Of a stretch of 35,002 nt of DNA, positions 2,370 to 34,730 are shown piece after piece (the stretch's first letter is position 1; the number at the start of each line of letters is the position of its first letter). Origin of the DNA: a virus (Duplodnaviria; Heunggongvirae; Uroviricota; Caudoviricetes). The notes beneath the pieces were generated by a model. The model made no database searches. It was not told the origin of the DNA and saw only the letters and a list, made by a program, of their open reading frames with translations. The position numbers were made by a program, and so were the translations under genes. Location: positions 1 to 35,002 of IMG/VR virus record IMGVR_UViG_2534681936_000014; one strand, given 5' to 3'.

Positions 2370-2395
2370 GGGACTCTTCGGAGTCCCTTTTTTTT
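2370..2395 (+). terminator. Rho-independent terminator (GGGACTC-TTCG-GAGTCCC then T8)
   Basis: Perfect 7-bp stem, TTCG loop, eight consecutive T; second of two tandem terminators 80 bp apart. Confidence 0.75.
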
Positions 2396-2636
2396 ATGCA
2401 ACAATTCGAAGTGTAAGTTTCTTATGTTGTGTAGGTTTAGTTTCATTTCGCCACTCAGGGAATACATGACCCATCATAACCGCATTAGTCTCATCAATCA
2501 GCTTTAAGGACTTTCTCAACGCCTTATTATCAGCTTTAAGAGTTTTAATCTCTGATTCCATCGCTACCATTCTTTCTTTCATTTTGGTAATTTCTAACAT
2601 CAGATTACCCAGAAATTCTTTGTTTTGATTCATCAT
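2394..2636 (-). CDS. Small coiled-coil protein (80 aa), unknown function
   Basis: ATG ATG start at 2636-2631 with GAGGGGTGA RBS; heptad-like sequence LEITKMKERMVAMESEIKTLKADNKALRKSLKL. Confidence 0.45.
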   Translation of the reverse strand: MMNQNKEFLGNLMLEITKMKERMVAMESEIKTLKADNKALRKSLKLIDETNAVMMGHVFPEWRNETKPTQHKKLTLRIVA

Positions 2637-2651
2637 AGATTCACCCCTCTA

Positions 2652-3653
2652 TTAAGCTGCGTATGCGTAGGCGCTGTAGTTGGTGTCGTAGATAGCGTCA
2701 TGCAGTGCCATCTGTGCTTCGCGGATCTCGTCTTCGTTTACTTCAATCTCTTCTTGTTCTTCTTCGGTATCTTCCCAAGTGGTTTTGAATTTAGCCATAA
2801 AGTTATTGCGCAGGGATTCAAAGTTAGTAACAGGTGCGGATTTTTCTTCAACCGGAACTACTACCGGATCAGCTTCTTTCTGTTCTTCCTGTTCTACTTT
2901 TTCACCGTTACCCCAGCGATAGTTAAGGAGTTCTTCCAGTTCTTCATCAATGGATTTTTCTTCAACTGCTTCAACTTCAACCGCTGCTACTTCGAAAGTG
3001 GTTTCCTGCGCTGCCAGTTCAGCTTTCAGAGATGCGTTTTCAGCTTCCAGTTCAGCAATGCGTGCTTTCAGTGCTTCAACTTCGGAAGATTCAACCACTG
3101 CAACTTCTTCTTTAACTTCTTCAACTACTACCGGAGCAACTTCTTTCTGTGCTTCTTTTTTGCAGAAGAAGGAGGAAGTAACCTGTAATGCGTGGTTGTA
3201 GAAGGAACCGCCTTTAGCGGTGTTAACAGTACCAGAAACATCCTTTACAGTGGATTCAGTAGCAACAGTACGGAAGCGTTTTGCGACTTCCTGGGTCTCT
3301 ACGCCGTATTCGTTACGCTTGCTCTTGTGATGCATTACAGCACGGAAGCCGGAAGCAGTTTTAACAACAGCGAGATAGTAAGTTTCATCGGCTTTAACAG
3401 CACGAGCGAAGCAATAAACGGATTCACCTTCTACCAGTGTAGGTTTAACGTGACGTTTGTCGAAACGGTTAGTGATCTGCCATTCAGCACCGTCTTTGAT
3501 GCCAGCATTCTGACGCATTTCGGTCAGAGTCTTACCGGATACTACTTCAAAGGATTTGTCTTGTTTGCTTGCTTTACCTTCCATGACGGTAATGTTCAGT
3601 TTGCCGTTGGATTTAATAAACAGGTTGAAGGTGATGCGCTTAGAATTTTTCAT
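2652..3653 (-). CDS. Hypothetical early protein, 333 aa, globular N-terminal domain plus strongly acidic coiled-coil C-terminal half
   Basis: ATG at 3653-3651 with AGGAG RBS; codon usage typical of highly expressed genes (CGT, CTG, GGT); C-terminal half rich in E/V/A with coiled-coil segment ALKARIAELEAENASLKAEL; no family recognised. Confidence 0.65.
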   Translation of the reverse strand: MKNSKRITFNLFIKSNGKLNITVMEGKASKQDKSFEVVSGKTLTEMRQNAGIKDGAEWQITNRFDKRHVKPTLVEGESVYCFARAVKADETYYLAVVKTASGFRAVMHHKSKRNEYGVETQEVAKRFRTVATESTVKDVSGTVNTAKGGSFYNHALQVTSSFFCKKEAQKEVAPVVVEEVKEEVAVVESSEVEALKARIAELEAENASLKAELAAQETTFEVAAVEVEAVEEKSIDEELEELLNYRWGNGEKVEQEEQKEADPVVVPVEEKSAPVTNFESLRNNFMAKFKTTWEDTEEEQEEIEVNEDEIREAQMALHDAIYDTNYSAYAYAA

Positions 3654-3769
3654 TTATAAATACTCCTGAATGCTGTGTTAGTTTTAATTGTTCATTTCAA
3701 GCCTCCTTTGCTGCAACAAGGGAGGCTTTTTATTTTTAAAGCCATCATATAATTCTCAGTGAAAGTGGA

Positions 3770-3949
3770 TTAACAAACTTGAACGTTAATCTTTATCTGA
3801 ATTTCGTATTTCTTCATTAGCTTATAGAATCCGCTTCTATCAATTCCTTCCTTCTTAAAGAAATTCTCGCCGCCTCGTTCAGTATCGCCATAAAAGCGTT
3901 TAGCAATATCAACAATCATTTCACGAGTAAACTTAACAGGTCTAGCCAT
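3770..3949 (-). CDS. Small HTH DNA-binding protein (Hin/resolvase-type HTH fold), member of a three-gene paralog family
   Basis: ATG at 3949-3947 with GAGGAA RBS (the ORF-track start at 3964 is a TTG); motif RPVKFTREMIVDIAKRFY...GIDRSGFYKLMKKY aligns with the 7015-7245 and 7275-7877 products. Confidence 0.5.
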   Translation of the reverse strand: MARPVKFTREMIVDIAKRFYGDTERGGENFFKKEGIDRSGFYKLMKKYEIQIKINVQVC

Positions 3950-4138
3950 AAGTAGATTCCTCAAATGTGGATTAATAAGGACAATAAAAAGAGCTTTTCG
4001 CCCTCGATACTTCTATTTATAAAAGTCATTTCAGAAAACCCTGTAAAACCACTGTATATCTGATCAGTGGGAGCACGAATTGCTAAAGAGAAGATTAATA
4101 ATTAATCAATTCGTACATTATTCAATCGAAAAGGCACT

Positions 4139-4172
4139 GTATGTTTAACCAGTGCCGTATGTGTTAACAGTG
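4139..4172. repeat. Imperfect tandem direct repeat, 2 x 16 bp (GTATGTTTAACCAGTG / GTATGTGTTAACAGTG), each containing a GTTAAC-like palindrome
   Basis: Read directly at 4139-4154 and 4157-4172 in the ORF-free region. Confidence 0.6.
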
Positions 4173-4306
4173 AATCAGGGGATTTTCAGAAGTGAACAAT
4201 CATTTCATGCATGTATTTATACACGAAAAAATCTTGCTTATCATCAATATGGGGATTGTTTCGAAAATTTCAACCCCTACCAACGAGAAAAAGTATAAAA
4301 TAATCC

Positions 4307-4320
4307 TTGACAGTTGTCAA
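4307..4320. promoter_or_regulatory. Perfect 14-bp palindrome TTGACAGTTGTCAA (operator-like; contains a TTGACA -35-like hexamer on both strands)
   Basis: Read directly; a related inverted repeat TTGTCAA-N6-TTGACAA occurs at 5702-5721. Confidence 0.45.
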
Positions 4321-4345
4321 TACACTTGACCTAAGCGAGAAATGA

Positions 4346-4517
4346 CTATCAAAATTTTTGTGTGAAAATGGCGGATAACGATTATCAACCTTTATAACCT
4401 ATTATAGCACGGCGACCTTTTGATAATTCTTTTTAAATCATGCATTTACAGCGATTTTTGGTGATTTTCCGGTTAAATAATATACAAGAATTTTCTATCA
4501 AAATTTTTGATGAAAAA
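4346..4517. repeat. Pair of 23-bp direct repeats (CTATCAAAATTTTTG[T/A]TGAAAA) 149 bp apart flanking an AT-rich segment with TTATCAA DnaA-box-like motifs
   Basis: Copies at 4346-4368 and 4495-4517 differ at 1-2 positions; GATTATCAAC (4380-4389) and TTGATAATTC (4421-4430) in inverted orientation between them. Confidence 0.55.
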
Positions 4518-4638
4518 CCTACACTACAAACCTACGCTTTAAAGGGATTGGCCTACACTACACTAGCCAGTAAACCTACACTATAACACCCTCAAACCTA
4601 CACTATGAAACCTACACACCTACACTAACCCTACACTT
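4518..4638 (+). repeat. Iteron-like array: 7 or more copies of CCTACACTA (variants CCTACGC, CCTACACACC, CCTACACTT) with irregular 10-30 bp spacing
   Basis: Copies read at 4518, 4531, 4552, 4575, 4597, 4611/4618 and 4629; all in one orientation; no ORF. Confidence 0.7.
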
Positions 4639-5211
4639 CAATCTCATAATTGTATGATCTTGAAAGACATTTCACCCCACAGACCATAGAATATAAAATT
4701 CGAACTAACGTTCTCCTTTTTGCTCGTTTTCTCTCACTACGTTCAAGAAAGATCTCGCAAAAAGAATACGGCGTAGCCGTGCGCGAAGCGCCCATCAACA
4801 CCTTCTAAGACCTGCAAGCAGGATTCGAAAGGGATTGGATAGTTCGCTTCGCTCACGTTCACGCCTACGGCGTTCACTCGCTTTTGAAAGGATTTTCTTA
4901 GAAAGGGATTTAATACTAGTTACTAACTGATTCTAGTAAACGAACGAAGTGAGTAACAATCACTTTCTAGAAAGGTATTGGTATCCCTTCGGGATTGCAA
5001 CCTTCGGTTGCTAAATTGCTTCCTGATTATTATTTCTCCAAAAGAAAGATTCTTATATTCTAAAGATACTTCTTCGTTTTGATGATGATTTAATCAAATC
5101 ATGAAGGAGGGCTTTGCCCGACTGAATACAATCACTCTTTTCATAATAACAAGAATTTTCTCTTTATAAATAATATTAGATTGATTCACTTTCTTTTAGA
5201 GGATTTCCACT

Positions 5212-5559
5212 ATGAACCATAAAATGACTACCACTACTCCTTTCATCCTGTTAGGTTTTGATGCTGATAGCTTCCACAATGACAAGTTAATGAAGATGTT
5301 CCGTGAACGTGGTTACAACATTCTTTTCAACTCTGATGAATCTCATTTCTCTAGTGCATGGTATGCGTTTTGCCGTAATAAGAAGCCGACCATTGTTGTT
5401 AACGTCTTCACCGATGAAGAACGCTTAAAGTACCAGAATCTACCAGCAATTATTGTTCGTGATGATCTGCCGTTTCAAGTCCGTTCCGGTGACATTGATC
5501 TGGGTAGCTTCGTTACTGTCTATGAACTGGATGAAGCAATGTTTAACTACGGCAAATAA
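5212..5559 (+). CDS. Hypothetical protein (115 aa)
   Basis: ATG at 5212 with AGAGGA RBS; the TAA stop is followed in frame by a 39-codon acidic extension (see findings). Confidence 0.5.
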   Translation: MNHKMTTTTPFILLGFDADSFHNDKLMKMFRERGYNILFNSDESHFSSAWYAFCRNKKPTIVVNVFTDEERLKYQNLPAIIVRDDLPFQVRSGDIDLGSFVTVYELDEAMFNYGK

Positions 5560-5800: not shown

Positions 5801-5947
5801 ATGAACACTACTAAGAAAATTGATGGACGTAAAAACCCGAACCGCAAACCGTGGACCCCAAACCTGAATTTCTCAATGGTTGACTTCCATGAACGCCAGC
5901 GTCGCATTCAAGAAGAAATTGATCGCGCGATTGCTGAATCTAAATGA
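5801..5947 (+). CDS. Small basic protein (48 aa), unknown function
   Basis: ATG at 5801 with AAAAAGGA RBS 7 nt upstream; translation MNTTKKIDGRKNPNRKPWTPNLNFSMVDFHERQRRIQEEIDRAIAESK; below ORF-track cutoff. Confidence 0.4.
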   Translation: MNTTKKIDGRKNPNRKPWTPNLNFSMVDFHERQRRIQEEIDRAIAESK

Positions 5948-6045: not shown

Positions 6046-6879
6046 ATGAATACTGTTACTACTATGAATACTGCTGTTAAAACTGCTTCCGTGTCTCTGG
6101 TTGTTGATAACGAAGTTGCAAAAATGACTCTTCGTGAAATTGCCGACCTTATTGGAGTTCGTTTTTCAAACCTTGAAACTTCTATGAACCGACTGGTTGA
6201 ACGCCAAGTTATCCGAAAACCTGCAACGCAGAATTTCGAGAAAATCAATAACTTAGGGTTTGCTGTTACTGTTAAAGATTATGTGTTTGAGGGTGAGCAA
6301 GGTCGCTTAGATTCGATTGTCTTGATTGCTCAAAACGTACCGGAATTTACTCGCCAACTGGTTGACCGTTGGAATTATCTGGAAGAGAAACTGAAAACCG
6401 CCAATAATACTCCTGTTAACCCGTATGCAGACTTTGAAGAAACCGATTGGATCGAACTGGCATTAGATGAAAAACGCAAAAATAAAAAACTGATTGAGCT
6501 ACACATTCGCAAATCCGTAGATAGCCATTCTATGACACGTCTGTTAGGCGCTAAAAAGGGCGCTACGAAGGTTAAAGAAGCACTGACGGCCTTACGTACT
6601 GCTGGATACATTGAGCGCGTCTATGATGAAAATAACAAGCCGTGTGGGTATGTTGCTAATGACTCTTCTCTGTCTTTCTGCCGCATGAATGCTCACTACC
6701 AACTTGAGTTTACTGTTGATGTTCTTCCGGTGCTGGTTGAATTGGGCGTTTTGGAAGAAGAACAGAAAGCAACTCTTAAACTACCGCAGCCAAATAACAC
6801 TATTCTGATTCAAAACAAAGCTGCTAAACAGATTCGTGAATCAGGTAACGTAATTTCCCTTGTTGATTTTGGGATCTGA
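6046..6879 (+). CDS. Putative phage regulatory protein (Rha/antirepressor-like N-terminal HTH segment); function uncertain
   Basis: Internal ATG at 6046 with AAGGGGA RBS (ORF-track start 5980 is a GTG); segment MTLREIADLIGVRFSNLETSMNRLVERQ resembles Rha-type DNA-binding domains from memory. Confidence 0.45.
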   Translation: MNTVTTMNTAVKTASVSLVVDNEVAKMTLREIADLIGVRFSNLETSMNRLVERQVIRKPATQNFEKINNLGFAVTVKDYVFEGEQGRLDSIVLIAQNVPEFTRQLVDRWNYLEEKLKTANNTPVNPYADFEETDWIELALDEKRKNKKLIELHIRKSVDSHSMTRLLGAKKGATKVKEALTALRTAGYIERVYDENNKPCGYVANDSSLSFCRMNAHYQLEFTVDVLPVLVELGVLEEEQKATLKLPQPNNTILIQNKAAKQIRESGNVISLVDFGI

Positions 6880-7014: not shown

Positions 7015-7245
7015 TCAAATTCCTGTTGCTTCTACCATTTCACCGTCAACCTGAACAAAGAATTTCAAATCAACTTTATGGAGTGATTTGTAGAATTGAG
7101 CGATTGAAATACCGTGTTCACTCAATACTTGTTCTTTTTCGGCTTTACCTTTCGGCGCTTGATAGTACGCTTTTACAATCGCTGCCAGTTGTTCACGATT
7201 AAAACGGGCAGGGCGACCGCGAGTAGCTTTAGTAGTCATAGTCAT
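7015..7245 (-). CDS. Small DNA-binding protein: AT-hook-like RGRPAR arm plus Hin/resolvase-type HTH
   Basis: Likely ATG at 7245 or 7239 (ORF-track start at 7272 is a GTG); TRGRPARFNREQLAAIVKAYY...GISIAQFYKSLHK matches the pattern of the Hin DNA-binding domain (GRPRAI...GVSTLYRY) from memory. Confidence 0.55.
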   Translation of the reverse strand: MTMTTKATRGRPARFNREQLAAIVKAYYQAPKGKAEKEQVLSEHGISIAQFYKSLHKVDLKFFVQVDGEMVEATGI

Positions 7246-7274: not shown

Positions 7275-7877
7275 TTATTTAGAGGACTTACATTTTATCG
7301 GAAAAAGTTCTCCATCGTCAACCGACATAAAGAACTCTGCCTTAATCCCGTACTTCTTCAACCGTGAATAATATGTACCCCGACTAATATCAACCTTGCG
7401 CAGCACTTCGAAGAACTCTTTAGGATTCCTGTAATAGTGGCTATATCGCACGTTAGCGAGTTCTACAAACAATTCCCTTGTATCACCATAGCCTTTCTTG
7501 AAAGCCACGTTACGATAGCGTGTAATGGCATGATTCAATCTCTTCTGTTTAAGCACTTCCCTGATCGGTGTCCACTGCAACCGATAGATCGGACCGTCAT
7601 CCACTCGATAATAACGCTTGATATCAAAATCAAACCATTCACGGACTCGCTGAAACTCTGTCTGTGATGTTCGGTGCTTCTTAAAGAAGTTGTGAATATC
7701 TGTATATCCCTGATCGCGATACAACTCTATTAAAATTTGCTTCGCTTCCTCGCGACTAAAGCCGGATGTTGTGTAATCAGTCTTCTTGTGATGGTGCTTA
7801 ACTGGCAAACGATATTCATGATCGGTACAAGACAAGGCTAATTCTAATTCATCTCTTTCTTGCTGATTAATTAGCAT
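7275..7877 (-). CDS. Protein with two tandem copies of the same Hin-like HTH module (200 aa)
   Basis: ATG at 7877 with AAAGGGGG RBS; contains [29 protein letters not shown] and [20 protein letters not shown]...[13 protein letters not shown], both similar to the 3770 and 7015 products. Confidence 0.55.
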
Positions 7878-7962
7878 ACAACCCCCTTTGATTAATACCC
7901 GTATTTATCAAAATATCAACAATTTAATAAATACCTTCCTATTTCGTAATGAGGGTAATTAC

Positions 7963-9870
7963 ATGAAACTGATTTCTAATAAGGCAAAATTAAAAAAGAT
8001 TCTCAGAAATGCAGCCAAATATATTACGCCACCGCCTAAACTCCTTCCGTCTGAATGGTGCGAAGCTAATATGGTGCTGGTAGATGGTCCTCAAGCTGGG
8101 GATAAAGTTAAATTGTTGTCATTCCAGAAAGGTATGATTGATGCTCCTTTCCTTGAGAACAAGAAAAAGTATGTCCTGATGACCAGTGCGCAGATCGGAA
8201 AAACTACCATCCTAAACGGTATCCTGTTTAACCAGATGGCTAACGATCCATGCAATATGATTATCGGACAATCAACCGCTAAAGAAATGTCTCAATATCT
8301 CGCTGGTAAGATCCGACCGTCTATCGAAGCATGTGATGCATTAAAAGACGTGGTTACAGACAAGAATGATCGCAATGCAGTTAACAACAATAACCAACTC
8401 CAGCTAAAAACGAATCACTTCCTGTACATGGTATCGCTTACCAGTCCATCAACCCTACGCGGTAAGACCGCAAAGGTTGGATTACTTGACGAAATCGATG
8501 CTGCCACAGCCTCAGAAGAAGGTGATCCGGTGGCACTGGCTGCTAACCGTTTAACTACCTTTGGCGATGAAGGTCGATTAGTCGTATCCAGTACCCCGAC
8601 CAGTAAGCTGGGAAGCATTAACCAGCAATGGTTATCAAGCGATATGCGTATGTTTTTTGTTCCGTGTCCTCATTGCGGGGAACACCAGGTGATCGAGTGG
8701 GAAAACGTACAGTTTGAATGGCGTAACATCGATGGTAAGAACTTACCCGATCCTGATACCGCTCGTTATATTTGCCCCCACTGTAAGAACGCATGGACCG
8801 AAGGGGAACGAATCAGGGCAGTAGCACAAGGCGAGTGGAGAGCAACCCGTGAAAGTGAAGTAGCCGGATTCTGGATCAGTCGTCTGTATTCACCTTTCAG
8901 CACGATCCGCGCTTGTGTGGTTGATTTTAGTCATGCGTGGCAATCCTTTGATTTACAATCATTTTATAACACCGTATTAGGCAAGGTATACGACGATCAG
9001 GACACGGCAGTAGAAGCAAATGAACTGGAACAACTCAAAACAGATGTTTCTATCGAGAATATCCCTGATGACGTGATTTTCTTGTGCTCAGGAATTGACC
9101 AGCAATTAGACCGCGCAGAGTCTACCATCTTAGGTGTAGCGAAAGATAAGGTTTACATTCTGGATCACCGCAGCTTTTACGATCATAACTGTGAACGATA
9201 TGAATCACCTGTTTGGGATCGTCTGGTTAACTTCAAGAAAACCAAATTCTATAACGTTAATGGTGAACGTGTGCCAATGCTCGCCAGCTTCCTTGATACA
9301 TCGAACGGTCGATTCACTCAAGCCGGATACCGTATTTGCGGCAAGTGGAAGAACCTACACGCTATCAAGGGTAGTTCATCTGGTAATGCTCCAGTAATTC
9401 CGGTTAAACCTACCCGCACAGGTGGTCATGAATTGCTTATGTTGGGTGTTAACGTTGGTAAATCCGCTGTTCGTGAAATGCTGGTTAGAAACCTGAAAGA
9501 CAATCCTCACATCGGCTTAGAAATATCAGAAACCGTTCCTGATGATTATCTCGATCAGCTTTTGAGTGAATCCATCAAGCGTACTACTACAGGTGTGCGT
9601 TGGGTGAAAAATCCAGGTAGTACCCGAAACGAGGCTCTCGACTGTCTGGTTTATAGCTATGCTGCTTCTCGCTACGTCCTTTCAAAAATGTCATGGGATA
9701 AACTCATTGCAATGAAAGACAGCTTAAACCGTGTTGTCGAAGAATCCGTAGAAGCTCCTAAATCGCAATCTGACGAGCAAATCGAAGAAACTAAGCCAAT
9801 CACACGACCGCAACGTCAAAACATCGCCAGACGCCCAAATAGAGGCCGTAGCTGGGTAACATCGTTCTAA
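7963..9870 (+). CDS. Terminase large subunit (GpA-like)
   Basis: 635 aa from ATG 7963 with GAGGGTAA RBS (ORF-track start 7888 is a TTG); Walker [12 protein letters not shown]; Cys-rich zinc-ribbon-like segments CPHCGEH...CPHCKNAW; size and gene order match a lambda-type large terminase. Confidence 0.88.
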
Positions 9871-14451: not shown

Positions 14452-14857
14452 TAATATGCCTAGACTGAAAATCAAACGCGCCTTGCAGGATATTATCGAA
14501 CAAGATTTAGGTCTGGCTTTAAACGTAGAACAAACTCAGCAAGGCTTTAGTGATGACGTGGTTTGTTGGATTACCGGAATGAATGAGACTTATACGCGTG
14601 TTCGTGGTGGTAATGCAATGCAAGCTGAATGCGTTATCGAAATGCAGTTATATTCTCAGATTCATGAAACGAAAATTCATGAGGGTATTTGCCAGATAAT
14701 CCAGATTCAGCCGGATAACCCACGTTTTAAAGATTTGGGCTTCGCTATTTCAGATATCACTCCAGTAGCTTCTAATACCGATTATGACGATGATTCTAGT
14801 GATGGGGGTATCGTTGGGACACTTAGCCTTAAATTTTCTTATGTAGCGCGTTTTTAA
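14435..14857 (+). CDS. Putative head-tail joining / tail completion protein (140 aa)
   Basis: ATG at 14435 with AGGGGG RBS, overlapping the upstream gene by 17 nt (the ORF-track start at 14354 lacks an RBS); positional assignment. Confidence 0.5.
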   Translation: MLATVNNMPRLKIKRALQDIIEQDLGLALNVEQTQQGFSDDVVCWITGMNETYTRVRGGNAMQAECVIEMQLYSQIHETKIHEGICQIIQIQPDNPRFKDLGFAISDITPVASNTDYDDDSSDGGIVGTLSLKFSYVARF

Positions 14858-15773: not shown

Positions 15774-18700
15774 ATGCAATCAATCCAATTTAAACGAACT
15801 AATGTTTCTGGCAAAAAACCAACGCCGGAACAATTACAGGTCGGTGAGGTAGCAATCAACCTTAAAGACCATGTTATTTTTACCAAAGACCGAGATCATG
15901 AAGTAGTTCAAATCTCTGTTTCTCCTGAAACTCACGCGGCACTAGAATCTAAAGTTGATGCTAACAAACAAGAATTGGATAGCACAATTGCAGTAAATGA
16001 CCGCAATATTCACGCTAAAGTAGATGAAATTAAACAAACTACTGATTCTACTATCGCAGCAAATCATGCAGAAATTAACAATAAAGTTGATGTAATTAAA
16101 CGCGAAACCGACGCGACAATCGAAGCTAATAAAAATAAAGCTGCTTCCGATCTTGCTGGTGTTAAAGCTGAATTGTCGGATACCATCAACGCTAATAAAA
16201 ATGCGGCTGCTGTAGCAACTCAGGAACTGGACACCCGCATCAATAAAAAAGTTGATGATATTAAATCCCGTACTGATGCAACCATCGCAAGCAATCACAA
16301 AGCAATCAATGACAAAGTTGATTTGATTAAGGCAGAAACTGACCGCACTATCGCAGCAAATCAAGCCTATGCGGAAAATCAGTTAACTGACACCTACAAT
16401 AACCTTACTGGTGTGATTGCAGCTAATAAGCAAGAGGCAGCGGATAGCGTCGCAGCATTAACCCGTGATGTTGAAGCCAAAAATACAGCAATTCATAGCA
16501 AAATTGACAACAACAAGGTTTACACTGATTCTGAATTGGCACGCTTAGAAAGCCGTATTGATGCAGCCGATGGATCTGCTGATGGCAAGTACATCAAAAA
16601 ACACGTAAACACTTATACTGATGGTTATTTGCTGTCTAAGACCGCAAACTATTTTGATGATCCAAATGCGCGTAATCTTGATTACTTTGGTGCATTCCGC
16701 ATGAATGACCTGGCGGGTCATATTGCAATGATCTTGCATGTTCCGCATCCATCTGGTGTTAATCATGCTCGTGGCTTTGAGTTCACTTATGGGTCTAATC
16801 CACATGCTACTGTAAGAACATACGGCTATGATGAATTAGGTAATTTGTCATATTCTCACCGCATGTATCATGAAGGCGATAAACCTACTCCGGCTGAAAT
16901 TGGCGCATATTCGAAAGCAGAAATTGACCGACTGTTCCAGAAGACGCTTAATTTTGGGATCGAGGGTGGTTGGTTTAAACTCGGTAGTTTAACACTGCCA
17001 CAGCAACACGGTCGTAGTGCTAAGATCCGCTTAGTTGGTGGTAACGGTTATAACGTCGGGATGAATGGACAAGCCAATATTATCGAATTGGTGATTCGAT
17101 GCGGCAACAATAGCCCGAAAGGTGTTGTATTCAATGCTTATTATAGCATCTGGTATCACGAACAACATTTTTGTGCAATTCCTACCGATGGTGATAATTA
17201 CGATCTTTACGCTTACTACGGTGCACATACAGGATTTGTTTTAGCAGAATATCAAGTTTCTTCCGGTGGTGTTTCTTTAAACCTGTTGGATACTCCTGAA
17301 TATCTGGGTGGTGAAAAACCTGTTGCAGATGAAATTTTTGATGCTCTTAACATTTCATCGTTCAATAACTTTAGCAACCGTGGGACGTTAAATTTTGCTG
17401 GAAACCATCAAGGCCAATATGACATTGAGCATATGAACGAACAACAAACTAACAGCAAAAAGATGTTGCGTCGCTTCCGTAGTTCTGCTCCTGCCACTAT
17501 CTGGCACGAAAGTGTTGATGACCAAAATTATCGTCTTGCTACTGGTTATGACGATGTAAACCAACAATTATTGCTTTCGGCTGCAACCGGGTTACATGTC
17601 AAGAGATTAACATTGGATGGCGGTGTTGGTAATGCCGGTATTGACATTCGTCGAGGACCAAACGAATCAAGCCATTTTAATTTTATGGATTATCGCACTG
17701 GTCAAGATGTTCGTAATGGCTGGTTTGGTTTTGGTGATTTGACGACCAAAGATTTTATTTGGTGGAACGATAACGGCCAAAACTCGATAAACCTGATTGA
17801 AGATGGCGAGTTGCATATTACTGGTGGTAAAGGCCAGAAAATTGTAATGAATAGCGAAGTTGCATTATCCGAAAATGCTCGTTTGGCTGTCAAAGGCGGT
17901 AACTATGGTTTGATATTACGCAATGATGGTTCTAGCTTCCATATTCTTACTACCGATTTAAAAGATTCTTTTGGTAATTGGAATAATCGCAGACCATTCA
18001 GTTATGATTTTGCGGACGGTGGATTATATTTAGGTGGTACTGAAACTGCTCGTTGTTTGCATCTTGGAATTGATGGTAGCACTCGTCTCGAAGACAACCT
18101 GTTCTTTAAAGCTGGTTCTCGTCAATCTATGGACTATATGGAACTCGTCCATTGGGGTGCAAGCAATACAGGTCGAAATAACGTTTTAAGTCTTCGTGAC
18201 TCAAAAGGATTTTTAGCCGAATTTGAACGTCTATGGGATAATACTACCAAAAACACCTTCTTCGGGAAAATGAAAATTAATCGTGGATCTGATGCAATTA
18301 TCATGAATGCCGAAAGTGGTGATTCGTCTGTATATTTGTTGGGTACGTGTGCTGACAACAACAACTGGTATATTGGTAAAGGCGGTGGTGATAATGGATT
18401 AGCGTTCTATAGCTATGCTACTAATGCCGCGATAAATCTTACGAACGCTGGGGATATTGCATTAAGTCCAAAAGGCGTCGAAATGGTTCATGTTAATAAC
18501 GCTCGATTATATGTTCATGGTGAACGTTGGACCGCTAGTCAACCAGGTGATTGGGGTAATCAGTGGCGAGTGGAAGCGCCAATATTCGTCGATCATGGCT
18601 ATGTTGGACAAGACTGTTATTATCCGATTGTTAAAGCAAGAAGTTTAATCACCAATCAAGGGTATACAACTGCCGTCGATTTTGGTATGCGTCGTATCCC

Positions 18701-19199
18701 TAACAATTGGGGACAAGCAATTATTCGTGTTGGATCTGCGGAAAACTCACCTGATAACGGACACCCTCAAGCTGTATTTGAGTTCCATCACGATGGGTTC
18801 TTTTACACGCCGGGTAACGGTAGCTTTAACGATGTGCATATTCGATCTGATGAACGTCTTAAGATCAACAAGGAAGAATTGGAAGAAGGTGCGCTGGATA
18901 AATTAAACAGCTTAACCGTATATTCCTACGATAAAGTTAAATCACTTTCTGATGATACAGTGGTTGGACGCGAATTAGGTGTCATTGCTCAAGATGTGGA
19001 AAAAGTTATGCCGGAAGCTGTGCACGTTTGCAGCGATGGAGATACCGAAAATCCAGGAGAAATTAAAACTATTTCTGTTTCTAGTATCAATGCTCTTTTC
19101 GTGAAAGCCTTTCAGGAATTAACGACTAAGTATGATGCGATGAACGAAGAGTTGAAAGCTGTTAAAGCTGAACTTGCGGCTATTAAATCCTGTAAATGA
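15774..19199 (+). CDS. Tail fiber protein with C-terminal S74-type intramolecular chaperone (self-cleaving) domain
   Basis: 1141 aa; N-terminal shaft built from about 22-aa repeats (KVDxIKxxTDxTIAAN); C-terminal region ...SDERLKINKEELEEGALDKLNSLTVYSYDKV...GVIAQDVEKVMPEAVH... matches the signature of endosialidase / T5 L-shaped-fiber chaperone domains from memory. Confidence 0.85.
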   Translation: MQSIQFKRTNVSGKKPTPEQLQVGEVAINLKDHVIFTKDRDHEVVQISVSPETHAALESKVDANKQELDSTIAVNDRNIHAKVDEIKQTTDSTIAANHAEINNKVDVIKRETDATIEANKNKAASDLAGVKAELSDTINANKNAAAVATQELDTRINKKVDDIKSRTDATIASNHKAINDKVDLIKAETDRTIAANQAYAENQLTDTYNNLTGVIAANKQEAADSVAALTRDVEAKNTAIHSKIDNNKVYTDSELARLESRIDAADGSADGKYIKKHVNTYTDGYLLSKTANYFDDPNARNLDYFGAFRMNDLAGHIAMILHVPHPSGVNHARGFEFTYGSNPHATVRTYGYDELGNLSYSHRMYHEGDKPTPAEIGAYSKAEIDRLFQKTLNFGIEGGWFKLGSLTLPQQHGRSAKIRLVGGNGYNVGMNGQANIIELVIRCGNNSPKGVVFNAYYSIWYHEQHFCAIPTDGDNYDLYAYYGAHTGFVLAEYQVSSGGVSLNLLDTPEYLGGEKPVADEIFDALNISSFNNFSNRGTLNFAGNHQGQYDIEHMNEQQTNSKKMLRRFRSSAPATIWHESVDDQNYRLATGYDDVNQQLLLSAATGLHVKRLTLDGGVGNAGIDIRRGPNESSHFNFMDYRTGQDVRNGWFGFGDLTTKDFIWWNDNGQNSINLIEDGELHITGGKGQKIVMNSEVALSENARLAVKGGNYGLILRNDGSSFHILTTDLKDSFGNWNNRRPFSYDFADGGLYLGGTETARCLHLGIDGSTRLEDNLFFKAGSRQSMDYMELVHWGASNTGRNNVLSLRDSKGFLAEFERLWDNTTKNTFFGKMKINRGSDAIIMNAESGDSSVYLLGTCADNNNWYIGKGGGDNGLAFYSYATNAAINLTNAGDIALSPKGVEMVHVNNARLYVHGERWTASQPGDWGNQWRVEAPIFVDHGYVGQDCYYPIVKARSLITNQGYTTAVDFGMRRIPNNWGQAIIRVGSAENSPDNGHPQAVFEFHHDGFFYTPGNGSFNDVHIRSDERLKINKEELEEGALDKLNSLTVYSYDKVKSLSDDTVVGRELGVIAQDVEKVMPEAVHVCSDGDTENPGEIKTISVSSINALFVKAFQELTTKYDAMNEELKAVKAELAAIKSCK
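15952..16380 (+). repeat. Intragenic tandem repeats, about 66-bp period, encoding the fiber shaft
   Basis: Successive units starting near 15952, 16018, 16084, 16249 and 16315 all begin AAAGTxGATG...ATTAAA...ACxGA. Confidence 0.6.
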
Positions 19200-31827: not shown

Positions 31828-33507
31828 TTAAATTCCAAATTCCTGTAATGGACCTGGTATTTCTTCTTCTGGTTTCCAGTTCTTATCTGTCAGCATGTCT
31901 AAACATGGATGCAGAACAAGCCCGTTACTCTCCAGAATCTGCCTATCATTGATAGTCTTCAAATCAACGAAGATCCGGCCTTTCCTCGGTCCTCTTGAAT
32001 TTTCTATTACAACTCTCTGGGTCTTGCCATCGATGTATTCCAGTACAAACAAGTTTTTGTACTTGTCAATCCTGCTACACCCGATCCGTTTTAGAGCTTG
32101 CTTAATCTTAAACCGGACCTTAATGCGATCCTCGTTGTAAACATCTTCTAAATCAAATTCTGCGAGCTTCTCCCAGCCTTGAGAGTCAACAGAATACATT
32201 TCCTCTTCTGCCATCTTAATTTGATTGTAGAGTGTTTCACGCTCGCTATTGAGGGTAGTAATCTGATCGGCTAGCTCCTTCGTTGCTCCTGTCATAGCAG
32301 AAAGGGTAATCAGGTTATCAATCTTGCGTGATATTTCATCAATCTGTACTTTCAAAGCCGGAACCGGATTAGCCTTATCTTCAGCAATCCAGATTTTATC
32401 AGCCAGCAATTGCAATACAGCTTTCTCTAATTGGTCGCCGCGAAAACTCCAGTTTGTATGCACACATTCAATACGACTAGAGCGCATTGCATCGCATGAA
32501 TAACGATATTGGTTAGGCCGTCTGTTTGTTCCTTTCACCTTAACCATAGCGGAACCGCAATGTTCACATTTCAATAGACCAACACCACTAAGCAAGGGAA
32601 TAGGTTTAACTTCTTCTTTGTCTCCAAAGTTACATGCTCTAACACCAATGCTTTTCTTAAGGTGATAAAACTCAGCGTCATCTAGCACACGAGGATAATA
32701 ATCCTTTAACTCATACTTAACGCCATCTACAGAGATTTCCTTGATACCAATCAAAGCGCGGGTATGGAACAACCTTTCAATCATTGCCCGTGACCAGTTT
32801 GAATGCCTCTTGTGACTTGCGGCTGGTGGTGGTGTGTATGTCGCGTTAAGGTGATCCAGTATCTCGGCGGTTGACCGTCCATTCCTGCGTAATTCCACAA
32901 CTTCCTGAACAATAGGGAAGAAGACCGGATGAGGAAGCACATAACCAGATGTGGTATCAGTCCACCACATATTCTTTCCAATTTCCTCGATTGCAACAGC
33001 CGGATTTTGTGGATTTTCTTGATGAGCTTTAATCTTAATCAGTGCGCTTGAGTTAGTACGATTGCGCTTAGTCTGGCTTTCCTCATTACCACGGATGAAT
33101 AAAAGGATGGAGAACATCAGGTCCATCGGGTTAGCGGTAACAGTATCCAGCGAGTAGATCTTGTTATCCATGCCAGTAACAATGGTTATCCCCCTACGGA
33201 TGATTGAAAGGAATAACTCCTGCGCACTGACAATATCGGCACGGGATAAACGGTCCAAGTTTTCGATGAATAGCCAGCTACCAACAGGAACGGATCTACC
33301 TATTGCATCAAGGAAACGAGATAGCGCCCCTGTTTTGGAGTTAGCACCCTTAAACGCAGATACACCCAGATCCTGATAATCATTTACCAGTTCAAGGTCA
33401 TACTTTACCGCAATCTCTCTAGCCATCCTGATTTGTCGTTCATAACTCGAACCATCATTCTGACGCATAGACGAGAAACGAATATACGAATACAGTTTAG
33501 TTTTCAT
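31828..33507 (-). CDS. Large serine recombinase (resolvase-type catalytic domain, recombinase domain, zinc ribbon and coiled-coil C-terminal region)
   Basis: About 559 aa from ATG 33507; N-terminal YSYIRFSSMRQNDGSSYERQ with the catalytic Ser in the position typical of serine recombinases; Cys pairs (CEHCGS...CDAMRSSRIEC) and coiled-coil region downstream. Confidence 0.85.
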   Translation of the reverse strand: MKTKLYSYIRFSSMRQNDGSSYERQIRMAREIAVKYDLELVNDYQDLGVSAFKGANSKTGALSRFLDAIGRSVPVGSWLFIENLDRLSRADIVSAQELFLSIIRRGITIVTGMDNKIYSLDTVTANPMDLMFSILLFIRGNEESQTKRNRTNSSALIKIKAHQENPQNPAVAIEEIGKNMWWTDTTSGYVLPHPVFFPIVQEVVELRRNGRSTAEILDHLNATYTPPPAASHKRHSNWSRAMIERLFHTRALIGIKEISVDGVKYELKDYYPRVLDDAEFYHLKKSIGVRACNFGDKEEVKPIPLLSGVGLLKCEHCGSAMVKVKGTNRRPNQYRYSCDAMRSSRIECVHTNWSFRGDQLEKAVLQLLADKIWIAEDKANPVPALKVQIDEISRKIDNLITLSAMTGATKELADQITTLNSERETLYNQIKMAEEEMYSVDSQGWEKLAEFDLEDVYNEDRIKVRFKIKQALKRIGCSRIDKYKNLFVLEYIDGKTQRVVIENSRGPRKGRIFVDLKTINDRQILESNGLVLHPCLDMLTDKNWKPEEEIPGPLQEFGI

Positions 33508-33570: not shown

Positions 33571-33984
33571 TTAAAGAATTTCACGGCAGCTAATCAGGGA
33601 ATAAGACGTATCACCTTTTTTAACATCAAATATAGGCGCGCCATCAACAGAATGCAGATACTTGATGTAGGATTTACCATCTTCGGAACCATAATATTCT
33701 TCTTTCTCGTTCTTATCTTCTTTCAATTTAGGGCTTTTGATTGTCTTATCATATACCGGATCGTTGAAAGCAAATTGACTATTATCATCATTCACGCGAA
33801 CTTTCACACCGATAAAACCACGATATTTTCCAGACGGTGCATGATAATAACGGTCGCCATCACGAAGATATTGTGTATCATCTCCTTTATGTTCGAAGTA
33901 GGAATTACACACATAATAGGTATTAGCATTTGCAGCACCAACCAAACCCAGAGCAAGAACAACACCAGCGATAATCTTTTTCAT
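33571..33984 (-). CDS. Secreted/periplasmic protein (137 aa), unknown function
   Basis: ATG at 33984 with AAGAGGAA RBS; signal peptide MKKIIAGVVLALGLVGAANA. Confidence 0.6.
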   Translation of the reverse strand: MKKIIAGVVLALGLVGAANANTYYVCNSYFEHKGDDTQYLRDGDRYYHAPSGKYRGFIGVKVRVNDDNSQFAFNDPVYDKTIKSPKLKEDKNEKEEYYGSEDGKSYIKYLHSVDGAPIFDVKKGDTSYSLISCREIL

Positions 33985-34029
33985 AGTAGAATTTCCTCTT
34001 GTTGTTTGAATTACGATATATTTATATCA

Positions 34030-34152
34030 TTAAAAGTTAATGCTAATAATCAGACCAAACACAACCGCACCAATCAAATCAATCCAGTTAATACACAGCG
34101 AATATTCTTTCTTGAATGTCTTAGATGAAATGCCATCATGAAATTGTTTCAT
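34030..34152 (-). CDS. Small membrane peptide (40 aa)
   Basis: ATG at 34152 with GGGGTGAG RBS; translation MKQFHDGISSKTFKKEYSLCINWIDLIGAVVFGLIISINF; below ORF-track cutoff. Confidence 0.3.
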   Translation of the reverse strand: MKQFHDGISSKTFKKEYSLCINWIDLIGAVVFGLIISINF

Positions 34153-34252
34153 TGCTCACCCCATACTAACGACAATATAAGAAAGACTAATCATGGTTGT
34201 GAGACTACCTCCCACGAATGAGATAAAAGCTAACATGTTTGATTCTCCATTT

Positions 34253-34278
34253 AAAAAGCGGTGGGAATTACACCCACC
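34253..34278 (-). terminator. Rho-independent terminator on the minus strand after the 34293-34730 gene
   Basis: GGTGGG-AATTACA-CCCACC preceded on the plus strand by A5, which is a T-run after the stem on the minus strand. Confidence 0.6.
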
Positions 34279-34292
34279 AAATTAGAAATTAA

Positions 34293-34730
34293 TTAAGCGC
34301 GAACGATGGTCAGAGTATCCAGCAAACCTTTTTCGTATAATTCGAAACATGTTTTATATTGCTCAATCTTCCAACCGTAGCGGGTGATCTTATTCAGTAG
34401 AATAATCACGGTATTCTCATCTAGGTATTGTCCTTGCTTACCAATTACATATGACTCGCGGGATAGTCTCAGCTTACGGAAACCTTTAACACCTAATTCC
34501 TTAGCCACCGCTTTAATCTCGTTAATCTCACCTTCTGCGGCTACATATTCAGCGTCGATAATCTCAGTTGATGATCTCAGTGCTACCAGAACTAAGGCCA
34601 TTGCTTCTTCTTCGGTACGAGCAACACCAGCTTTCTCGAAAGTCATCTCACCAAATTTACGAGTCATAATATTGAACATTGTCTGTATTCCGTTTAAATC
34701 GGCGGGAATAGTACCAGCCAAATTAGACAT
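34293..34730 (-). CDS. Hypothetical protein (145 aa)
   Basis: ATG at 34730 overlapping the upstream TAA (TAATG coupling); no motif recognised. Confidence 0.5.
   Translation of the reverse strand: MSNLAGTIPADLNGIQTMFNIMTRKFGEMTFEKAGVARTEEEAMALVLVALRSSTEIIDAEYVAAEGEINEIKAVAKELGVKGFRKLRLSRESYVIGKQGQYLDENTVIILLNKITRYGWKIEQYKTCFELYEKGLLDTLTIVRA

Follow-up and report, generated by a model that had tools for sequence, protein, structure and literature searches.

The locus described here raises a simple question: which protein recognizes a cluster of short direct repeats that a prophage carries at a single non-coding place, and what would this recognition control? The window that we analysed is the whole stretch of 35,002 nucleotides of the IMG/VR record IMGVR_UViG_2534681936_000014. 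It is a stretch of the Escherichia coli chromosome, its sequence is identical in FDAARGOS_946 and O55:H7 DEC5A, and it corresponds approximately to one entire prophage, about 35 kb long, which is integrated within hicB. The array is genuine, very far from random and conserved in its position, and the comparison of related loci argues that it is best read as the cognate sites of a protein of 333 residues encoded at 2652-3653, the N-terminal domain of which changes together with the repeats.

An array of eight direct repeats

4514-4641, + strand: repeat array, eight same-orientation sites, consensus AAACCTACACTA
3770-3949, 2652-3653 and 2394-2636, − strand: leftward genes on the left of the array, encoding a helix-turn-helix (HTH) protein of 59 residues, the protein of 333 residues and a protein of 80 residues
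5224-5559, 5801-5947 and 6046-6879, + strand: rightward genes on the right of the array, the last one encoding a Rha-like protein

The core CCTAC(A/G)C starts without overlap at 4518, 4531, 4552, 4575, 4597, 4611, 4619 and 4630, on the + strand throughout, and an extra half copy of the core overlaps at 4557; no copy of the repeat was found on the − strand of the array region. Five copies of CCTACACTA are exact (4518, 4552, 4575, 4597 and 4619), two variants differ by one base (ACTACACTA at 4557 and CCTACACTT at 4630) and two others by two bases (CCTACGCTT at 4531 and CCTACACAC at 4611). The eight cores confirm the initial annotation of the window, which had noticed at least seven same-orientation copies of the 9-mer and its variants. 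About 0.27 copies of the exact 9-mer are expected by chance in the 70 kb of both strands at uniform base frequencies, and it does not recur in the remainder of the window or, over 46.4 kb of flank, in the E. coli chromosome; the exact copies are confined to the array, and the objection that the 9-mer might occur elsewhere at a similar density does not apply. When one mismatch is allowed, 7 of the 12 matches in the window fall within the 121 bp of the array, the mean after shuffling being 4.3 for the whole window. In a window-wide scan, the array was the only non-coding iteron-like cluster; an AACATGT cluster (scan windows starting at 34126-34226) was dropped, as the region 33960-34320 shows no operator-like array.

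The successive repeats start 13, 21, 23, 22, 14, 8 and 11 bp apart, distances of 8-23 bp that are close to one or two helical turns and that replace the irregular spacing of 10-30 bp described initially. The top strand of the array, 128 nt long, contains 9 G against 44 C. The array sits in a non-coding gap of 1.25 kb (3965-5211); no tRNA gene lies near it, the sole tRNA call being at 14622-14712. CRISPR arrays consist of regular repeats, 23-50 bp long, with unique spacers of about the same length between them, and are usually accompanied by cas genes. Such an array is ruled out, as already stated in the initial annotation, by the repeats of 9-12 bp, by their start-to-start spacing and by the lack of annotated cas genes.

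Five unrelated repeat types at the same place

The loci that we compared comprise 17 from E. coli, two more distant metagenomic contigs and 32 from IMG/VR, some of which may duplicate RefSeq genomes, so that the independent loci are fewer than those counted. In all of them the flanks of the array can be aligned, up to a palindrome, ATCAAAAtTTTTGAT, that ends at 4511 and again from about 4878. The stretch between these conserved flanks does not align across types and contains one of five unrelated same-orientation arrays, to which a one-base variant has to be added.

Type A: CCTACACTA
Type B: TTTGCCCCTGAAA, about 9 copies
Type C: TCCCCG, 15-19 copies in two clusters
Type D: AAATCCCCAAGATTCCAC, 5 copies
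Type E: TCCCCCGGTATTAGG, then GATGTACAAG, two arrays in tandem

The alignment of the window with type B or type C loci breaks down in exactly two segments, one being the array cassette (4512-4878) and the other the stretch that encodes the 333-residue and 80-residue proteins (about 2394-3655). In six non-redundant arrays of unrelated sequence, the start-to-start distances cluster at 8-14, 19-23 and 41-43 bp, with a Rayleigh p of about 5e-8 for a period of 10.5-11 bp and a mean phase near zero. This spacing is what binding to one face of duplex DNA predicts, and it is not to be expected of a motif acting in RNA.

Two loci encode diverged orthologs of the protein. L020, whose ortholog is 77% identical, has eight copies of CCTACACTA and in addition an inverted pair, ACCTACACTA-N15-TGTGTAGGG, on the 3' side of the leftward promoter described below. 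L019, whose ortholog is 46% identical, has five or six copies of CCCTGCACTAA, which carries a single-base change in the core; its CCTGCACTA repeats are the one-base-shifted variant of the site. In L015, an IS3 insertion stands in place of the array and of half of the 333-residue-type gene.

Three further loci show composite arrangements. L050 (3016-3440) carries TCCCCCGGTATTAGG 7-10 times followed by GATGTACAAG 11 times, in a locus with two paralogous array-type proteins, and L011 (6020-6075), which is also a two-paralog locus, has a second family, ACCAATATACCTACA, in 2-3 copies after its TCCCCG clusters. In L008 (5434-5451), a lone type-D motif, AAATCCCCAAGATTCCAC, is found directly 5' of a type-A CCTACACTA array, and it looks like the scar of a cassette exchange.

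The repeat type follows the N-terminal domain of the 333-residue protein

2652-3653, − strand: gene of the 333-residue orphan protein (RefSeq WP_000798183, annotated hypothetical), candidate binder of the array
3129-3653, − strand: its N-terminal globular domain (codons 1-175), type-specific, putative DNA-recognition domain
2910-3086, − strand: its long predicted helix with leucine-zipper-like heptads (codons about 190-248), putative oligomerisation domain
2394-2636, − strand: 80-residue coiled-coil protein ending in ...TLRIVA, in type-A loci only

Every version of the protein combines a type-specific N-domain of about 170 residues, a leucine-zipper-like helix and an acidic C-terminal region, which follows the predicted zipper helix and ends in ...YAYAA in the window; structure prediction gives the N-domain as a helix packed on an antiparallel sheet. 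Among the loci whose gene is intact, 44 in number (16 A, 21 B, 5 C, 1 D and 1 E), the N-domain and the repeat are always of the same type, and the match also holds in the frameshifted type-A locus L007 and in L019, which makes 46 loci with no exception. The 333-residue protein is the candidate binder because its N-domain matches the array in every locus examined, and we infer that the array very probably consists of the recognition sites to which this N-terminal domain physically binds.

The general reading of the initial annotation, cooperative sites for a sequence-specific protein, is therefore supported, if indirectly, by the covariation in 46 loci, by the one-base change of site that accompanies a diverged ortholog and by the phased spacing in five types. 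Related phages do carry different iterons, a point that the initial annotation had proposed to check. The binders then listed, the HTH paralogs and the Rha-like protein, are not the ones that vary with them, the matched protein being that of 333 residues. Indeed, the same 59-residue protein (WP_021515494) is common to a type-A and a type-B locus; the 74-residue HTH protein (7015-7239) has one version, WP_000208372, that types A and B share and another, WP_000208371, that types A and C share; its 200-residue paralog (7275-7877) is 86-99% identical across types; and the Rha-like protein of the type-A window is 99% identical to that of the type-B locus L010. A 48-residue protein (WP_001098357) is likewise common to types A and B, and a Nu1-like protein varies independently of the array type. 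Because they are shared across the types or vary independently of them, none of these proteins can set the specificity.

Beyond close relatives in Escherichia and Shigella, the 333-residue protein and its type B-E counterparts have no match in Pfam, PHROGs, 5.8 billion clustered proteins or the phage database; the 333-residue protein itself matches none of 50,697 phage records, and no structural relative was found in PDB or BFVD. A search of 1.84 billion representative proteins returned only two diverged orthologs of the N-domain (P0121 and P0123), the IMG/VR scan returned close relatives only, and two genome-contig scans with the 200-residue protein and its profile revealed no wider relatives. 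The N-domains of different types give no significant match to each other by single-sequence hhalign. The protein matches neither the HTH, XRE, S24 or Mu-repressor families nor the known Rep, O or RepA families (Pfam, PHROG, PDB fold, BFVD), and no RepA_N or helicase domain and no winged-helix Rep fold were detected in it.

In types C, D and E, the position of the 80-residue gene is taken by the gene of a larger paralog of the 333-residue protein, a paralog that ends in RPTLRLVA in types C and D and does not in type E. The array-matched proteins end in -YAYAA, -LGLAA, -DFAA or -RKAA and the downstream proteins of types A-D in -TLRIVA, -TLRLVA or -RLVA, termini which in our reading resemble ssrA-like degradation tails; in L003, the tail is expanded to YAYAYAYAYAYAYAYAYAYAYAA.

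Recombination between the gene and the array

3770-3949, − strand: gene of the 59-residue HTH protein, between the 333-residue gene and the array

Could gene and array vary together simply as neighbours? The 59-residue gene exists as three alleles of 47-55% mutual identity, two of which are found with type A and all three with type B. A segment with LexA-like boxes and the alternative segment that may replace it occur 14 and 2 times respectively with type A, 6 and 15 times with type B. In L007 and L008 the segment 4021-4518 is swapped and both partners are retained, and the N-domain of type B is followed by one or the other of two C-terminal regions while the array is unchanged. The shuffling of the 59-residue alleles and of the LexA-box segment across types A and B implies repeated recombination between the gene and the array. 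The covariation is therefore not mere linkage, because the DNA between the partners recombines and yet not one mismatched pair was found. From this comparison, the gene and the array are best read as an exchangeable specificity module.

The prophage and its distribution

31828-33507: large serine recombinase gene, at the right end of the prophage
7888-9870: gpA-type large terminase gene

The prophage also encodes portal, capsid and tail proteins, nearly all the genes of its left-end early region are hypothetical, and neither a replication gene nor a repressor is recognisable among its annotated genes. The best match of its large terminase is 43% identical, and the prophage is thus without a close cultured phage; the literature searches for the prophage or for the array module gave nothing relevant. 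By their insertion, members of the family split one or another of at least three host genes, namely hicB, ycdX and a gene for a cytosine permease (L001, L002, L005, L008). The array region is matched in 58 of 5,426 complete E. coli genomes, in the chromosome every time, and in none of 72,556 plasmids; the 69 places that match positions 3700-5300 of the window in complete E. coli genomes are all chromosomal. Strain UTME-9 has three places matching the array region, among them one type-A and one type-B cassette, and a type-B query finds two places in each of four genomes, a co-residence that does not discriminate between the hypotheses considered below.

A candidate Nu1-like small terminase (1139-1693; PHROG 57, E 1e-11) lies 6 kb from the large terminase, across the early region. 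The large terminase is adjoined by the two opposite-strand HTH paralogs (7015-7239 and 7275-7877), the second of which is a tandem duplication of the 59-residue fold. Two parts of the window, 400-1700 (an LprI-family gene and its neighbours) and 17370-19022 (part of the tail fibre), have 81-90% DNA identity to lytic Krischvirus phages, where the matching regions are annotated as holin, hypothetical genes and distal long tail fibre subunit. Such identities point to DNA exchanged recently between this temperate lineage and phages of the T4 type.

Signals in the DNA around the array

4340-4513: conserved flank common to all repeat types, with 72% A+T (window mean 59%)
4497-4511: palindrome ATCAAAAtTTTTGAT, ending just ahead of the array
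4292-4322, − strand: leftward sigma-70-like promoter, TTGACA (4320-4315), 17 nt, TATACT (4297-4292), a consensus-level prediction
3989-4005, − strand: intrinsic-terminator-like hairpin with T-run, just upstream of the 59-residue gene
4052-4067, 4137-4152 and 4155-4170: three LexA-box-like sites, CTGT-N8-xCAG, the third degenerate
4640-4877, + strand: type-specific segment, swapped along with the array

The conserved flank contains two copies, at 4347 and 4496, of a 23-nt repeat including TATCAAAATTTTT, which we read as an IHF-like site with 12 of 13 matches to the consensus; no repeats of the 13-mer type were seen in this A+T-rich flank.

The predicted leftward promoter, within an invariant palindrome, TTGACAnnTGTCAA (4309-4322), is directed at the genes of the 59-, 333- and 80-residue proteins. 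The terminator-like stem at 3989-4005 is kept in relatives by compensatory changes (GAGGGC/GCTCTT, AAGAGC/GCTCTT, CAGAGC/GCTCT), which suggests that the leftward operon is controlled by attenuation or antitermination. The LexA-like boxes fall within the transcribed leader of this predicted promoter, and perfect CTGT-N8-ACAG boxes are present in the relatives L005, L011 and L020; no convincing −10/−35 pair for a LexA-controlled promoter could be placed on either strand. The boxes suggest that, in some members of the prophage family, the early region is under direct SOS control. Together with the conserved terminator, they further suggest that the 333-residue protein would be made on induction and would hence be an activator or an initiator, not a maintenance repressor.

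The type-specific segment contains the conserved mini-hairpins ACGGC-GTA-GCCGT and GCGC-GAA-GCGC and, at 4664-4699, promoter-like sites on the + strand. GCGAAGC mini-hairpins were rejected as a specific feature: they are present in most of the non-coding regions examined, but the window contains nine of them in dispersed positions. On the − strand, a terminator-like hairpin with a T-run (4780-4768) and a promoter-like TTGTTA-18-TAGAAT (4930-4959) could define a small RNA of about 150 nt in the type-specific segment, antisense to the rightward leader.

Farther to the right, two adjacent hairpins (4983-4995 and 4997-5011) have C(UUCG)G loops on the + strand, and the second is replaced by GCAGC-GAAG-CTGC in L019 and by GCCCC-TACG-GGGGC in L020. 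Because the hairpin structure is conserved and not its sequence, a structured + strand RNA leader would precede the 5224 gene. A non-coding element of 75 nt (5021-5098) is about 81% identical to unannotated intergenic repeats of RB49-like Krischvirus phages (T4-type), where it occurs 1-3 times per genome; in RB49 this repeat is likewise preceded by a hairpin, with a UACG loop. The element may be related to the promoter/stem-loop cassettes known from these phages. On the left side, the motif GCACGAATTGCTAAAG (4074-4090 in the window, also in L008 and L019) occurs once or twice per locus wherever it was looked for, the loci with the alternative segment included, and a partial inverted copy lies at 4107-4114 in the window; it may be the site of a regulator common to different types.

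A proposed model: replication origin and initiator

What would the module do? Taken as a whole, the explanation that we prefer, and that we propose tentatively, is that the array and the 333-residue protein are the replication origin of the prophage and its initiator. Oligomers of the protein, joined by the central coiled coil, would occupy sites located one or two turns apart on one face of the duplex, and a higher-order complex would be assembled beside the conserved A+T-rich flank with its IHF-like sites. The N-domain would read the iterons and the separately modular C-terminal region would recruit host or phage factors, so that the module would work like lambda O and ori-lambda, or like the Rep or RepA proteins of satellites and their iterons. 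This reading is favoured because the array is the sole iteron cluster, because an A+T-rich stretch is its neighbour and because no other replication gene is recognisable. Two clusters of repeats flank an A+T-rich spacer in type C (56 bp, 70% A+T) and in the second array of type E (104 bp, 67% A+T), and by analogy the inverted pair of L020 near the leftward promoter resembles a Rep autoregulation site. A documented precedent is the Vibrio PLE satellite, whose initiator recognizes, through its N-terminal domain, iterons located in non-coding DNA (PMC7145576).

A series of observations weighs against an origin. DnaA boxes show no enrichment: the window contains 9 matches with one mismatch, 9.8 being expected, and the nearest, at 3966-3974, is about 550 bp from the array. 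No helicase loader is recognisable in the prophage, and the small downstream gene, a possible loader, is missing in most type-B loci. The two paralogous proteins of types C, D and E and the two tandem arrays of type E would be unusual for an origin. The A+T richness of the flank is only moderate, and the 333-residue protein has no similarity to known initiators. Finally, the last repeat of types B and D is located at a fixed 19 nt before TTTATAA(A/T), a −10-like element without a −35, and this fixed distance fits promoter control at least as well as an origin.

Alternative explanations

Control of the rightward early promoter is nearly as likely as the origin role, while it too remains a tentative proposal. 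The array would then be a transcription-control site through which the 333-residue protein represses or activates the rightward early operon (the genes of the 111/155-residue, 48-residue and Rha-like proteins), either by an immunity-like repression, as the Mu repressor does on O1-O3, or by an activation of the PhoB/OmpR type, in which tandem sites replace a −35 element. The array heads the rightward unit, just past the predicted back-to-back promoters, and in types B and D the 19-nt distance to the −35-less TTTATAA(A/T) has just been mentioned; −10-like TTTATAA elements are flanked on both sides by inverted copies in type B and in L020. The pair of paralogs and the two arrays of type E, as well as the 80-residue partner of type A, which is a coiled coil only, resemble a regulator and its anti-regulator more than they do initiators. 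The succession of a DNA-binding domain, a zipper and a tail ending in -AA or -VA recalls the Mu repressor, and swapped cassettes of a regulator and its sites are common in temperate phages. On the other hand, the promoters are consensus-level predictions only, the geometry of type A differs, and eight to twenty sites are many for an operator. Between the 333-residue gene and the array lie another gene, a terminator and, in many loci, LexA boxes, which speaks, if weakly, against a constitutive maintenance repressor; the L007 prophage, which is kept despite its frameshifted gene, is a further weak argument against a repressor in the lysogen. Transcription control would, moreover, leave the phage without an identifiable origin or initiator.

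It is improbable that the array is a centromere-like, tethering or packaging site, the acidic C-terminal tail of the protein coupling the DNA to a motor, to the terminase or to a cell structure, as ParR does at parC or Nu1 of lambda at cosB. The arrays, which have 8-20 short direct repeats in phase and in some cases form two clusters, do resemble parC of plasmid R1, the layout of DNA-binding domain, coiled coil and C-terminal tail is that of centromere-binding adaptors and small terminases, and an IHF-like site adjoins the array as in cosB. Nevertheless, partition is contradicted by a window without any ParA-, ParM- or TubZ-like NTPase and by the chromosomal location of 69 out of 69 matching places. 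As for packaging, the sites of a lambda-type cosB adjoin the terminase genes and are bound by the small terminase, whereas here a distance of 3.2 kb, which includes other genes, separates the array from the large terminase gene; the separate Nu1-like small terminase (1139-1693) is encoded 2.8 kb from the array and does not track its type.

A role of the repeats in RNA, as motifs of a structured leader of the rightward operon that would be bound by a protein or paired with a small RNA (as with the CI RNA of P4 or c4 of P1), is very improbable. It would account for the strand asymmetry in G and C, for the UNCG-loop hairpins downstream on the + strand, one of which is replaced by other hairpins in L019 and L020, for the complementary copies just 3' of the array in types B and C, and for the possible leftward small RNA of the type-specific segment. 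It is weakened because a periodicity of 10.5-11 bp shared by five unrelated motif types is a property of duplex DNA, and the covariation with a protein domain also speaks against it; type A has no complementary copy nearby, and Rfam gave no match for the whole window at gathering thresholds and none even at E<=1 on 3900-5300. Least probable of all is a binding of the repeats by the HTH paralogs (3770-3949, 7015-7245, 7275-7877) or the Rha-like protein (6046-6879), predicted DNA-binding proteins that are encoded nearby but occur in identical or nearly identical versions alongside unrelated repeat types.

Significance of the module

Iterons or operators with a matched binding protein are known in kind. 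What is new lies in the components: an orphan protein, at least five orthogonal specificities, and partners that stand apart across freely recombining DNA. The matched array and protein are the clearest handle on the replication control or the lytic entry of this prophage, and the natural orthogonal pairs of protein and sites, at least five, together with the one-base-shifted pair, amount in effect to a ready-made specificity-swap experiment. If the binding is true, the protein would found a new family of DNA-binding proteins and would illustrate how a recognition domain and its sites are exchanged as a pair across DNA that recombines freely. It is possible, though less likely than not, that the N-domain represents a new kind of DNA recognition, an alpha+beta roll distinct from HTH, ribbon-helix-helix and winged-helix folds, with at least five unrelated specificities for sites of 6-18 bp; with the zipper and the exchangeable effector tail, it would then form an undescribed module for phage replication or the lytic switch. 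Should this be so, the prophage family would offer a natural orthogonal set of proteins and sites and a new class of phage initiator or regulator.

Comparison with known systems

How does the module compare with the systems that it recalls? The ParR/parC systems of R1 and pSK41 share with it ten or more phased direct repeats of about 10-11 bp, which may form two clusters on either side of a promoter, and a binder with an acidic C-terminal tail. The 333-residue protein is, however, three times larger than ParR and is not predicted to be ribbon-helix-helix, a ParM-like partner is missing, and the element is always chromosomal.

The resemblance to the Mu repressor c and its operators O1-O3 lies in an N-terminal DNA-binding domain, a zipper-like centre and a C-terminal tail tied to proteolysis; in both cases, too, the sites are short and numerous, extend over about 200 bp, are accompanied by an IHF site and stand where the rightward early operon begins. 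There is no homology between the two, the gene of the prophage is not adjacent to its sites, and a steady expression in the lysogen is made somewhat less likely by the LexA boxes and by the terminator that precedes the operon.

With the iteron plasmids (P1 RepA, F RepE, R6K pi, pSC101 RepA), the module has in common direct repeats spaced by about 22 bp, an IHF site, an A+T-rich neighbour and, in L020 only, an inverted half-repeat pair near the promoter of the gene. It differs from them by repeats of 9-18 bp with a mixed spacing of one and two turns, and by the lack of a DnaA-box cluster and of a detectable winged-helix Rep fold.

Among satellites, the RepA_N initiator RepA of the Vibrio PLE binds non-coding iterons through its N-terminal domain (PMC7145576), as we propose for the 333-residue protein. 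The two iteron sets of SaPI Rep/ori surround an A+T-rich spacer, as do those of type C and of the second array of type E. In contrast to satellites, the present element is a complete prophage of 35 kb, and its protein has no RepA_N or helicase domain.

The last comparison is with lambda O and ori-lambda. The repeats of ori-lambda are four 19-mers containing inverted repeats, and they lie inside the O gene, whereas the short direct repeats of the prophage, 8-20 in number, are found in non-coding DNA at a distance of 0.9 kb from the gene and beyond divergent promoters; the prophage has no recognisable P-like helicase loader, and its protein no sequence similarity to O. In both cases, nevertheless, a protein of about 300 residues would read, through a type-specific N-terminal part, a set of repeats that adjoins an A+T-rich stretch, while its C-terminal part is exchangeable.

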